A DNA stretch of 64,000 nucleotides, from the NCBI GenBank assembly GCA_964016885.1, contig OZ024742.1:80910001-80974000 (forward strand), read 5' to 3'. Below, piece by piece: positions 9,608 to 63,480 of this stretch (positions are counted from its first letter, which is position 1; every line of letters starts with the position of its first letter). Made by a program: the position numbers and the translations under genes. The stretch is from Eledone cirrhosa. Taxonomy: Eukaryota. The notes under the pieces were generated by a model that was given only the letters and a program-made list of their open reading frames with translations, made no database searches and was not told the origin of the DNA.

Positions 9608-9762
9608 TTCATTATTTCTGAAGACGGCATATATGTGTGTTTGGTATGTATATTTAATCTTGATAGTTTGTATAATTTTGTATAATTTTGTACATAGATC
9701 TGTTGAATATGCATGCCAATTCTAACACATATATATCCTAGAAACGATCGTTAAATAATGAA
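9608..9762 (+). ncRNA. Type I hammerhead with 116-nt rod-like stem II (5' pLTR)
   Basis: TTCATTATTT-CTGAAGA-[9625-9740]-GAAA-CGATCG-TT-AAATAATGAA; 10-bp stem I, palindromic AACGATCGTT stem III. Confidence 0.75.
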
Positions 9763-10112
9763 CTTTTTTTGTTTAATATAAGGAACTGTTTCATTGTTTT
9801 ATTCATTATTTGTTTAATATTTTATCTTGACTCTGTATTCCGTTTATCTTTCACCGAAAGTGATTTTTCATTACATCTCTTCTTTCCATGATATCCGGAA
9901 TACATTGAGTTCTTCATACGGATTGGACACTACCGTAAACTCTTGGTAGATTTATCTACATAATTTTGCTCCTATTTTCACGGAAATATTCGTATTTTTG
10001 TACTGTATGTGTGTATTAATTTTATATTTATGTATATACATATATATGTATGATTTTGTAAACCCATATACATTTAGTTGAGCTCTTTCAATTGTCCATC
10101 ATCCATATCACA

Positions 10113-12488
10113 ATGGAAAAACAATATTTGGGAACCTCTTTAAAAAACATACCAATACCTTCTAAGGATGACTTCTTACTCCTTATGATTCAAAAAACTA
10201 ATAATTTTATCAGAAGAGTTAGATGGAGGGCCTACCACTTCGACAAAAAATCTAAACAAGCAGATCGGAAATATATGTATGATTTCAATACTTACAAGAA
10301 TCCACCACACAACTTTTTACTTGAAGACTTCGAGAAAGACCTTTTTAATTTAATTAAACACCTCAAATTTAAAAAGTATAAATCCGTCTTTCAAAAGGAC
10401 CTTGATTCTACCCTATTGGACCTAAACAAGTCTAAAAAAATCCATGTCCACTCGGACAAAACTGGTAACTTGTATCACATGGATATTGAACATTATAATG
10501 AGTTTATATATAAAGAACTCAGAAAAAATTATAAAAAATCTAATAATGCGTCACTCACCAACATCAACAACAAAACACACAACATAGTAAAAAAACTAAA
10601 CATTGAAGATAGAACTGAACCTTTGGCATTGAAAAGACCACACTTCAACCTGAAGGATCATAAATCAAACTTTAACTCAAATCCTTCTATAAGACTTATA
10701 TGTCCCTCCAAATCAGATATTGGAATAATTAGCAAAAAAATTTTGGATAGAGTCATCCCACAAATAAGAAAACACGTTATTTTACCACTCTGGGAAAACA
10801 CCTCCCAGGTAATTAACTGGTTTAAAAATATTAGATGTAAATCTTCTGCTTCATTTCTACAATTTGATATAGATAATTACTATTCTTCTATATCACCTAT
10901 ACTCCTGAACAAAGCATTGATATTTGCTAAAAATAGATCTAACTTAACTTTGGATGACATTAATATTATTACACATGCTAGACTAACACTTATTGAATTT
11001 CAGAATGAATACTGGACCAGAAACACATATAGTAATCTATTTGATATTACTATGGGTTCAAGCGATTCCGCCCAAATTACTGATCTTGTGGGCCTCTTTC
11101 TCCTTTTCAACATAAATGCCTCCTTTCCCCACCTTAAAGGTGGTTTATATCGTGATGACTGTCTTCTTCTTTCTAACAACCTTAGCCTTTCAGAAATAGA
11201 AAAAAACAAAAAACATATTAGAACTTTCCTTAAAGACTATTATAATCTTCATATTACTTTTGAAAAAACAAGTAAAGTAGTAAATTTCCTAGATATAACT
11301 TTAGATTTAGCTACGGGTATCTACCAACCTTACCATAAACCAAACCAAAACTTACATTACATACACTCACAATCTAATCACCCTAAATCTATCCTTAAAA
11401 ACCTTGCATATAATATATCACTTAGAATTTCTACCCTTTCTTCTAACCAAGATGTATTTGATAAAAATGCGACCTTCTATAACGAAGCTCTAGATAGAAG
11501 TGGCCACAAAAATAGATTAGAATATATACCTTCTACTAAAAATACTAAAAGCATACAACCTAATATTACCAACAAACACCAAATGAAAAGTACACACCTA
11601 AATGCCACCCACACTATACCCCAAAATACCAAATCTTCTAATATAAAATATAGTAACTCTCAAAAAACTACTCATCATACAACTCTAATAAATATTAATA
11701 ATAAATCTCCCAATAAAAAAGATAAAACACCTAAATCTACAAATATAACTAAAAATGGTTGTGGTGAGATCATTAACATTAATCCTCCTAGTAAACATCA
11801 CGATACAACCTATAAAAATAATAAAAATAATAAACAACATAGAAACCGTAATAGACGGGTTACTTGGTATAATGCTCCATTTAATTTACAAATTAAGGAT
11901 AATATTGCTAAAAAATTTTTTTATATCCTAGAGAAAAACTTCCCGCCAAACCACAAATACCATCAAATCTTAAATAGGTCTACAGTTAAATTCTCATACT
12001 CAACAACAAATAACATAAAACAAAATATAAGTGCCTATAATGCATATAAATGTAAGAAAACCATAAGTATACCACCAATACATCAAATTAACCATAATAT
12101 CTCCTCAAATACAGAATTAACGAAAGGTTGTAACTGTAGAAACAAAGCAAACTGCCCATTAAAAGGGAATTGTCTTGTTAACAACATAGTCTATAAATGT
12201 AATGTTAAAACTAAAGATTCTATTTGCTCGTATATAGGAGCTACTTCTAACAATTTTAAGACAAGGTTTAATACCCACAAGCATAGTTTTAAAAATGCCG
12301 CACTGGCTAATACAACATCTCTAGCAGAAAAAATCAATAGTTATAAAAATAAGAATATAGAATATGATTTGACCTGGAGTGTGCTCAAAAGAGCCACCCC
12401 TTATCAAAATAATAGAAATGAATGTAGATTATGTTCCCAAGAACTATTTGAAATAATGAAATCTAAGGATATCCTATTAAATAAATGA
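10113..12488 (+). CDS. PLE polyprotein: reverse transcriptase + GIY-YIG endonuclease (Nematis-like)
   Basis: Uninterrupted ~791 codons from first ATG; SLKNIP, DKTGNLY, LKDHK, QFDIDNYY, FDITMGSSDSA, GGLYRDD, NFLD, SNHP, CNCR..CPL..CL, IVY...YIG; homology continues 21 codons past the TGA. Confidence 0.93.
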   Translation: MEKQYLGTSLKNIPIPSKDDFLLLMIQKTNNFIRRVRWRAYHFDKKSKQADRKYMYDFNTYKNPPHNFLLEDFEKDLFNLIKHLKFKKYKSVFQKDLDSTLLDLNKSKKIHVHSDKTGNLYHMDIEHYNEFIYKELRKNYKKSNNASLTNINNKTHNIVKKLNIEDRTEPLALKRPHFNLKDHKSNFNSNPSIRLICPSKSDIGIISKKILDRVIPQIRKHVILPLWENTSQVINWFKNIRCKSSASFLQFDIDNYYSSISPILLNKALIFAKNRSNLTLDDINIITHARLTLIEFQNEYWTRNTYSNLFDITMGSSDSAQITDLVGLFLLFNINASFPHLKGGLYRDDCLLLSNNLSLSEIEKNKKHIRTFLKDYYNLHITFEKTSKVVNFLDITLDLATGIYQPYHKPNQNLHYIHSQSNHPKSILKNLAYNISLRISTLSSNQDVFDKNATFYNEALDRSGHKNRLEYIPSTKNTKSIQPNITNKHQMKSTHLNATHTIPQNTKSSNIKYSNSQKTTHHTTLININNKSPNKKDKTPKSTNITKNGCGEIININPPSKHHDTTYKNNKNNKQHRNRNRRVTWYNAPFNLQIKDNIAKKFFYILEKNFPPNHKYHQILNRSTVKFSYSTTNNIKQNISAYNAYKCKKTISIPPIHQINHNISSNTELTKGCNCRNKANCPLKGNCLVNNIVYKCNVKTKDSICSYIGATSNNFKTRFNTHKHSFKNAALANTTSLAEKINSYKNKNIEYDLTWSVLKRATPYQNNRNECRLCSQELFEIMKSKDILLNK

Positions 12489-62575: not shown

Positions 62576-63254
62576 CACCTCTACTCTTTGTATGTATGTA
62601 TTTATGTACATACATGCATACACACAAAAATGAAGTGTTACATAGCTATACGTATCTAATATATATATACGTATCTCTCTCTCTCTCACTCTCTCTCTCT
62701 CTCTCTCTCTCTCTCTCTATATATATATATATATATATATATATATATATATATATATATATATATATATATATATATATATATATATATATATATATAT
62801 ACATATATATATTACATATATATATCTATATATATGTATATATATATATATATATATATTTATATATATATATATTGTTATACTTTGGGAGGGTCAGGTT
62901 GCCCAAAGTATAACAATATCGGTTTCAACACACGTTTTCAGATAAAGAATCTTGCTAAACAAATTCGGAACGATATATAGGTATGTATATATATATATAT
63001 ATATATATTATATATATATATATATATATATATATATATATATATATATATATATATATATATATATATTATATATATATATATATATATATATATATAT
63101 ATATATATGTATGTATATATAGTAAGGTGCATTATTGGTTGTGTAAAATGGTCCAATAAGTTTATGTTAGTAATATTAAATTCTCCACGCTTTTGTATAT
63201 CTCCAATTCCATTCGAGGGAACAGCTAGATGATGTAAAACGGAGTATAAGTATC

Positions 63255-63480
63255 AAAATGAAAATCCGAAGGCAAGGTAAAATTCCCTCCGTATGAGGGA
63301 ATGAATTCTGGAGAGAACATCGTTTTTTTTCTCCCTCATATCAAGAATTTGAAGACAATTCATTTTCACCTGATGAGATCAGTGATAATCGATCATGGCT
63401 TCACAATCGATCTATCTCTTATTGAAACATGTGTCGTGATTAAATGATTGGAATTTTACCTTGCCTTCGGATTTTCATTT
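63255..63480 (+). mobile_element. Solo pLTR with ~30-bp inverted ends
   Basis: aaatgaaaatccgaaggcaaggtaaaattcc (63257-63287) / ggaattttaccttgccttcggattttcattt (63450-63480), then (TA)n. Confidence 0.75.
63366..63439 (+). ncRNA. Type I hammerhead, canonical core, 47-nt stem II
   Basis: TCAC-CTGATGA-GATcAGtGATA ATCGAT[12 nt]ATCGATc TATCtCTtATT-GAAA-CATGTG-TC-GTGA; GUC cleavage after 63435. Confidence 0.85.

Follow-up and report, generated by a model that had tools for sequence, protein, structure and literature searches.

Why do Penelope-like elements (PLEs) in the genome of Eledone cirrhosa carry, close to their 3' ends, hammerhead ribozyme motifs whose stem II runs to 47-116 nucleotides (nt)? 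The question is raised by a 64,000-nt stretch of contig OZ024742.1 (hereafter the window), in which an earlier note, made from the sequence alone, had placed seven such motifs belonging to five families (F1-F5; L-numbers denote sampled loci elsewhere in the genome). All seven sit where they had been placed, with the same arm lengths and predicted cut sites (Table 1), and we agree that they are type I hammerheads near PLE 3' ends, with a stem II far beyond the arms of published hammerheads from the Hydra clade of PLEs (at most ~26 nt). Hydra hammerheads as such are known; what these sequences add is a covarying stem II of 47-116 nt with a conserved internal module. We propose, at a probability of roughly 0.4, that the covarying rod may offer this module to the reverse transcriptase (RT)-endonuclease of the element itself, which would bind there.

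The five families are all high-copy repeats in the 3.0-Gb source genome, with 524, 397, 2514, 2452, and 1344 first-look candidates for F1-F5, respectively, and the hammerhead boxes parse in 30, 29, 22, 29, and 28 of 30 fetched copies. A descriptor comprising stem I, the two boxes, an 8-250-nt arm closing as a helix, stem III, and UH, which was written after the window had been seen, found 113 matches when each strand of 1,464,000 bases, the window among them, was scanned, and none in reversed and complemented controls. [quoted passage not shown] Among the 113 matches, arms measured <20 nt in 63, 20-29 nt in 14, 30-45 nt in 12, 46-69 nt in 6, 70-99 nt in 13, and 100-149 nt in 5, with none longer; 24 matches have arms of at least 46 nt. 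Genome-wide, a pattern for 76-105-nt arms gave 24,442 matches versus 1,004 in a backwards control, a pattern for the 3' half of F1-like arms gave 13,938 versus 0, and a pattern for the F4-group arm gave 4,470 versus 2. For 120-149-nt arms the excess was only twofold (1,977 versus 959), and we therefore place the upper limit of arm length at about 120 nt. A genome count for 46-75-nt arms (46,191 versus 7,864) was discarded, as it held many offset matches and a repeat resembling coding sequence. Since a further seven hammerheads in the window have short arms of 13-31 nt, arm length forms a continuum. The earlier expectation that length-capped searches miss the long arms is plausible, given the 7-17-nt spacer of the core-only searches in PMC8557442; however, none of the 142 matches (E up to 1) from an Rfam scan of the window was to a hammerhead family. 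The short-armed motifs were thus missed as well, and arm length cannot be the sole reason for such misses. A strict scan demanding the 10.1-11.1 pair recovered none of the seven motifs.

On the evidence of folding and covariation, the arm is a structured RNA domain under selection. As the earlier note had it, the lowest-energy fold is a single rod in all five families, although the gain in stability over shuffled sequences is clear only in F1 (z = -8.3) and F3 (z = -3.5), and weak in F5 (z = -2.0) and F4 (z = -1.8). Two other arm groups fold into branched structures; the 96/97-nt and 83/84-nt arms (L260, L214, L354, L355, and block C3 70299) form branched two-hairpin domains in place of rods, in several diverged subfamilies. 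Within an F1-like set of 22 arms (99-116 nt, with both C3-G8 and U3-A8 cores), chimeras with swapped 5' and 3' strands are ~11 kcal/mol less stable than native arms, the native arm being the more stable in 79 of 79 pairs at 70-80% identity and in 31 of 31 at 60-70% (pairs that are not independent). In the F4 group (the window copy together with 22 of the 25 rows collected, the other three being near-duplicates), a hand-drawn structure has 90.7% of cells paired versus 86.5% in shuffles, 26 doubly changed cells versus 9.6 (0 of 500 shuffles), and 9 doubly changed pairs versus 5.7 (18 of 500), six of the nine lying within the arm, all of these figures being inflated by relatedness. Stem I and the stem III palindrome also change in register between families, and the cores are better kept than their flanks; thus, neither the lack of covariation nor the poorly kept cores that the earlier note had set against its own proposal was found. 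Moreover, the sense fold beats the antisense fold in 20 of 27 arms (mean -5.8 kcal/mol), compared with 48% of random segments, and the constraint therefore acts on the RNA.

Such folds could also result from growth that is merely tolerated, in which a permissive stem II lengthens by slippage or fold-back, selection keeps the pairing so that the three-way junction closes, and the module is an inherited relic. This account is possible, if somewhat doubtful. It fits (i) the continuum of arms from 12 to 116 nt; (ii) the 116-nt arm, which differs from its 99-107-nt relatives partly through an apical-loop duplication; and (iii) the short-armed families that thrive and the several long arms that are module-free or branched. 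It does not explain why the unpaired module is kept while the paired rod is replaced, nor does pairing account for an 11-nt spacing between tandem modules. A further reading, that the arm is a Drosha/Dicer substrate yielding small RNAs, draws on the F1 arm, with its >40 predicted pairs and its z-score. This is very improbable, as most arms are short or loop-broken, two groups are branched, and the paired sequence turns over freely; in addition, the Rfam microRNA matches in the window all fall below the gathering score and lie on microsatellites.

The module takes the form 5'-ANU-3' facing 5'-AG-3'; we interpret this as one A.G and one U-A pair with a bulged N between them, which varies among G, A, and U. 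The arms had been said to share no obvious sequence, which is true for long stretches, yet F1, F2, and the F4 group have this 5-nt module in common. Comparison of F1-like subfamilies gives 53-65% identity for the rods but 92-100% for the distal 22 bases, a conservation equal to that of the GAAAC box, and one of these subfamilies, L276, was retrieved without any pattern on the distal module region. The module occurs in 6 of 14 arm groups, namely F1, F2, the F4 group (represented by L304), and three 82-90-nt groups; structure-keeping shuffles gave a mean of 1.2 groups and reached six in 0 of 300, and the best of 40 like-shaped motifs reached six in 13 of 300. With the definition unchanged, newly fetched families contained it in 4 of 4 recurring cases (1 of 1000 shuffles) and in 5 of 7 when singletons were included (2 of 1000). 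Furthermore, two modules 11-12 nt apart pass the test in L352, L356, L357, L359, and L361. For the 2041 contigs of run X1 placed on F4, no difference of at least 3% was listed at the five module positions, and in 63 contigs from the same run the F4 distal arm is attached to a different proximal stem with a canonical core. The pattern points to conservation rather than convergence, with common descent likely.

Among the three functions that the earlier note had offered for the arm, a protein handle fits best, a fixed scaffold fits poorly, and a small-RNA precursor is unsupported. The distance from module to core varies from ~14 to 40 nt, by several bases even within the F1-like group, which argues against a fixed contact with a stem I of 4-10 bp and points instead to a ligand acting in trans. 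Proteins often bind purine-purine pairs that have bulges. In the scaffold reading, the module or the arm loops would dock on stem I, or on the partner arm of a stem III dimer, and so speed protein-free cleavage. Loop II-stem I contacts are a known role of the stem II periphery (PMC3088659, PMC6155905), the variant cores (U3-A8, U4C, and U4C with A6U) might need such help, and the dimer geometry is backed by the palindromic stem III; the varying distance, the short stem I, and apical loops that are not conserved (28-50% in five of six comparisons) nevertheless make this reading improbable. A kink-turn has a 3-nt bulge beside tandem sheared G.A pairs and a canonical stem; such a reading of the F4-group loop was rejected by eye, there being no consistent canonical stem beside a 3-nt bulge. 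Loop A of the hairpin ribozyme is paired with a loop B and has a conserved G11; this candidate for the F4-group loop was likewise rejected, because a C occupies the G11 position and there is no loop B.

The ends of the genomic copies bear on how the hammerhead is used. The 3' ends of copies are found 16-230 nt past the cut site, which means that the RNA from which they were copied was uncut there. Two 3'-end distances past the cut are seen, for example in F3, F4, and F5 (16-24 and 97-99 nt; 52-62 and 155-158 nt; 45-50 and >160 nt, respectively). Long- and short-armed families share an ACTCY motif 49-77 nt downstream of the cut, just past the nearer of the two 3' ends; it is a candidate clade-wide signal at which reverse transcription probably starts. 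Two 3' ends downstream of an uncut hammerhead are also a feature of anole Poseidon (Frangieh et al. 2024, PMC11167929), where cutting by the hammerhead depends on the protein of the element, the RT copies uncut RNA, and reverse transcription starts at two internal sites on it. That element provides a model for protein-dependent cutting, although it belongs to another clade and has a short stem II overlapping the open reading frame (ORF) start.

By our favoured reading, in which the module is a protein-binding site, the Hydra RT-endonuclease would hold its RNA by the arm, beside the downstream start signal. The first pair of stem II is usually mismatched; the bound protein would either stabilise this stem or block it, and cutting would thereby be timed within the transposition cycle; a cut in the upstream pseudo-LTR (pLTR) would give an mRNA 5' end 360 nt ahead of the start codon. 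A stronger version, that these are natural aptazymes in which the module on a long stem II lets the RT switch cleavage on or off and so choose between mRNA and template, we regard as unlikely. Engineered hammerheads are switched by ligands on stem II domains (reviewed in PMC2777235), and the natural arms resemble them in joining a domain to the core by a weak stem II link: 24 of 27 long arms, versus 23 of 42 short arms, lack a Watson-Crick pair at 10.1-11.1, recalling the weak link of engineered stem II aptamers. The engineered aptazymes are artificial, however, and both ligand and switching are putative here. The module is often doubled, with one helical turn between the two copies, as would suit a protein that binds as a dimer; this might speak to the same idea, though it too is doubtful.

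Several observations weigh against a protein-binding arm. As to the fold, the F2 arm is no more stable than shuffles (z = -0.5 to -0.6), RNAalifold on a MAFFT alignment of F1-like arms, which is not structure-aware, recovered distal helices only, and the chimera effects in the F4 group are small (~2 kcal/mol; 51 of 81 pairs at 60-70% identity). As to the module, it is absent from 8 of 14 groups (F3, F5, and the 48-, 50-, 53-, 84-, 96/97-, and 81/82-nt groups, the last being negative only in the chosen copy), the helix next to it is weakened in F4 itself, common descent may explain its presence in several families, and it was first spotted by eye, the out-of-sample picks having followed a reading of the listing. 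As to function, the ACTCY motif may be the real protein signal instead of the arm, and in anole Poseidon binding was mapped to a 172-nt region tied to the downstream RT start, not to stem II (PMC11167929). Finally, families with 13-31-nt arms are equally abundant, and a 27-nt form of an 82-nt family exists. The arm is an addition in part of the clade, not required by all Hydra elements. The two forms of that last family are L210 (27-nt arm; block C1b 97200-97259) and L184 (82-nt arm; block C1a 33825-33937), and the short form, seen in one copy, looks like an internal deletion.

The ligand might instead be a host factor, with the rod at the 3' end of the cut, unpolyadenylated transcript protecting it or aiding cap-independent translation, much as a 3' stem-loop or a viral 3' translation element might do. 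In a type I hammerhead the arm remains on the 5' product, the presence of the same module despite 33-44% protein identity would suit one conserved host protein, and self-cleavage in viral untranslated regions (UTRs) is reported to support cap-independent translation (PMC13725137). This explanation is nonetheless hard to favour and seems to us improbable, since genomic copies come from RNA uncut at the 3' hammerhead and many families do without the module.

The five families had been called unrelated; they are distinct, yet their ORFs place them in one clade, Hydra. All five hammerheads lie downstream of Hydra-clade ORFs whose endonuclease regions are 33-44% identical. The F1 element has the order pLTR, ORF, long 3' UTR, pLTR, and its single ORF encodes an RT and then, at the C terminus, an endonuclease of the GIY-YIG type, with the motifs RWRA 37 (RWK-type), DKT 115, YRDD 346, CxCX5C 673 (the linker), YIG 707, and CxxC 771, and without a CCHH motif; pLTRs, inverted 5'-truncated copies, a tail, and (TA)n insertion complete the Hydra feature list of PMC8557442 (section 11). 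The F1 ORF in the window ends early, and four other copies continue into a CxH motif. F2-F5 were placed in the clade by the similarity of ORF pieces to F1: Hydra-like pieces, mostly upstream and in sense, are present at 27 of 30 F2, 15 of 30 F3, and 7 of 30 F5 loci, and in 4 of 4 long F4 copies the hammerhead is preceded by a Hydra ORF, the end of which lies ~2.2 kb upstream. Those four copies rule out a Neptune origin for F4, which nearby Neptune ORFs had suggested. Some ORF-to-hammerhead pairings are based on proximity alone, and a Pfam search matched 2 of 7 window ORFs, no Hydra ORF among them.

The earlier proposal of repeated insertion in unrelated families is therefore not supported. The endonuclease tree (142 columns from this genome's pieces and one Neptune outgroup, with 10 of 27 inner branches firm), in which F2 groups with two 87-90-nt families, is too short to count the origins of long arms. 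The presence of F1 or F4 in other species is too weak to claim: contigs of two other organisms give thin partial cover, and one of them, at depth 2.2, links both F1 ends around 83 other letters.

The order stem I, core box, stem II, GAAA, stem III, UH, stem I, described earlier as preserved in each case, is found in the window in F1, F2, F4, and F5. Copies of the F3 family elsewhere have it as well, whereas both F3 window copies are incomplete, the one at 46293-46378 ending before it reaches the cut site or the second (3') strand of stem I. Nor is stem III short in each case: in F3 the usual form, seen in 16 of 22 parsed copies, combines a GUC triplet with a stem III of 5 bp closed by a 9-nt loop. 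An F3-type hammerhead could cut as a monomer, yet keep a possible kissing-loop dimer site; in the family (L062-L090), the 9-nt loop holds the 6-nt palindrome GAGCTC. Of the long-armed motifs, 26 have a short stem III of even length, and in all 26 it is self-complementary; the folding program gives 6-10-bp duplexes and no hairpin, which fits the dimer model of PLE hammerheads (PMC4209133; reviewed in PMC6765202). These type I hammerheads near Hydra 3' ends are thus predicted to cut as dimers via the palindrome, which a single change disrupts in the F4 window copy.

The core box, described as of the CUGANGA type, is so in F1 and F5, whose cores are canonical throughout (C3 U4 G5 A6 N7 G8 A9; G12 A13 A14; A15.1-U16.1; H17). 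F2 and F3 have a compensated U3-A8 pair, and C3-G8 and U3-A8 alternate among F1-like arms. F4 departs from the canonical core, with CCGUCGA (U4C and A6U) in 28 of 29 parsed copies; its sister subfamilies with the same arm have canonical cores. U3-A8 is reported for Schistosoma PLEs (PMC4209133) and U4C is a known tolerated variant (PMC3088659); the hammerhead literature covered contained no report of A6U. Two short-armed variant cores, namely CAGAAGA (U4A, 9 sampled copies) and CCGAAGA (U4C), occur at 33453-33503, 40553-40601, and 43103-43151. All F1-like arms, as well as the 31-nt family, retain a C.C mismatch at a distance of three pairs from the junction (9625-9628 / 9737-9740; 45817-45820 / 45844-45847).

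The closest published relatives are the 26 Hydra rows in File S2 of PMC8557442 (Craig et al. 2021), with arms of at most ~26 nt by our count (23 nt in Hydra-1_oBim). The window hammerheads resemble them in lying close to the 3' end and in their (TA)n targets, short palindromic stem III, ORF motifs, frequent U or A at position 17, and frequently unpaired 10.1-11.1; they differ in their 47-116-nt arms, covarying rods, and conserved internal module, and in the U3-A8 and CCGUCGA cores, which are missing from those rows. Long stem II arms (~54 and ~48 nt) also occur in PLE-X1_sMoe and PLE-X1_sTam, marked as deviating in File S2; these are, however, single examples from endonuclease-minus spike-moss elements of another clade, half the length of F1, for which the available material describes neither covariation nor a module. 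The minimal PLE hammerheads of Cervera and De la Pena (2014; PMC4209133) share the pLTR location, the palindromic helix III dimer, the extra base after A9, and the U3-A8 variant, but have a helix II of 6-8 bp with a conserved G10.1-C11.1, which is rare here. Among the published PLE hammerheads covered, a scope outside which several supplements lie, we found no arm longer than ~54 nt and nothing on 60-116-nt arms or the module.

The in vivo role of PLE hammerheads has been called a mystery (PMC7761336). Tens of thousands of element ends in this one genome carry long-armed hammerhead motifs, which short stem II limits can miss. The dozens of related families, in which arm length varies almost tenfold, the module is kept or lost, and compensatory variants occur naturally, are ready constructs for asking whether the arm binds the RT and gates cutting. 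If growth was only tolerated, the result is a modest one, albeit still the longest natural stem II that we found described for a PLE hammerhead.

Table 1. Positions of the hammerheads, their internal and downstream motifs, and the elements that carry them in the window
Feature	Position	Strand	Details
F1 hammerhead, upstream pLTR	9608..9762	+	stem I 10 bp; core 9618-9624; 116-nt stem II rod 9625-9740; GAAAC 9741-9745; palindromic stem III; GUU triplet; predicted cut after 9752; boxes identical in 30/30 copies
F1 distal module	9662..9700	+	ANU 9665-9667 facing AG 9696-9697, between two short helices
F1 hammerhead, downstream pLTR	15732..15886	+	116-nt arm 15749-15864; predicted cut after 15876
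F2 hammerhead	29827..29929	+	U3-A8 core 29833-29839; 72-nt arm 29840-29911; palindromic stem III; predicted cut after 29923; module 29865-29867 facing 29887-29888
F3 copy, decayed	46075..46169	-	55-nt arm 46157-46103; GAAA box and triplet gone
F3 copy, truncated, inverted	46293..46378	+	55-nt arm 46306-46360; ends in stem III loop
F4 hammerhead	58795..58881	+	variant core CCGUCGA 58799-58805; 60-nt arm 58806-58865; GUC triplet; predicted cut after 58877; module 58820-58822 facing 58852-58853
F5 hammerhead	63366..63439	+	canonical core 63370-63376; 47-nt arm 63377-63423, without module; GUC triplet; predicted cut after 63435
Comparator, 31-nt arm, Hydra-type hammerhead	45802..45867	+	also 25195-25258 (-) and 27182-27247
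Comparator, 20-nt arm, U4C core	43103..43151	+	inverted copy 40553-40601 (-)
Comparator, 13-nt arm	33453-33503		
Comparator, 14-nt arm	1225-1267		
ACTCY motif	9826-9835; 29980-29990		equivalents in F3, F4, F5, and short-armed families; GAGT-containing stretch further on
F1 upstream pLTR	9038..9825	+	98.6% identical to 15166-15949 (self-BLAST)
F1 inverted fragment	8688-9041		self-BLAST
F1 downstream pLTR	15166-15949		element ends at 15949 in (TA)n
F1 RT and C-terminal GIY-YIG ORF, 791 aa	10113..12488	+	Hydra-clade marks
F2 Hydra-clade ORF, 5'-truncated	27930..29371	+	
F4 element, 5'-truncated, 3' UTR only	57208..58944	+	Neptune ORF end at 55426 lies outside it

Other repeats share the window. 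A Neptune-clade PLE occupies 3907-8764 (ORFs 6256-7236 and 5155-6255, - strand; inverted 3' copy) and a second Neptune 3' fragment lies at 54893-55426; the hammerhead descriptor gave no match on either. The segment 56590-56760 (-) resembles another PLE 3' end, with a GAAAC box, a palindrome, and UC, its first core box not being recognisable. Two decayed non-LTR (RTE-like) RT regions span 48970-54103, with an RVT_1 match for 52878-53663, and palindromic or short dispersed repeats at 24038-24463, 43200-43555, 1129-1484, and 17025-17208, which resemble miniature inverted-repeat transposable elements or short interspersed elements, are present in several window copies.

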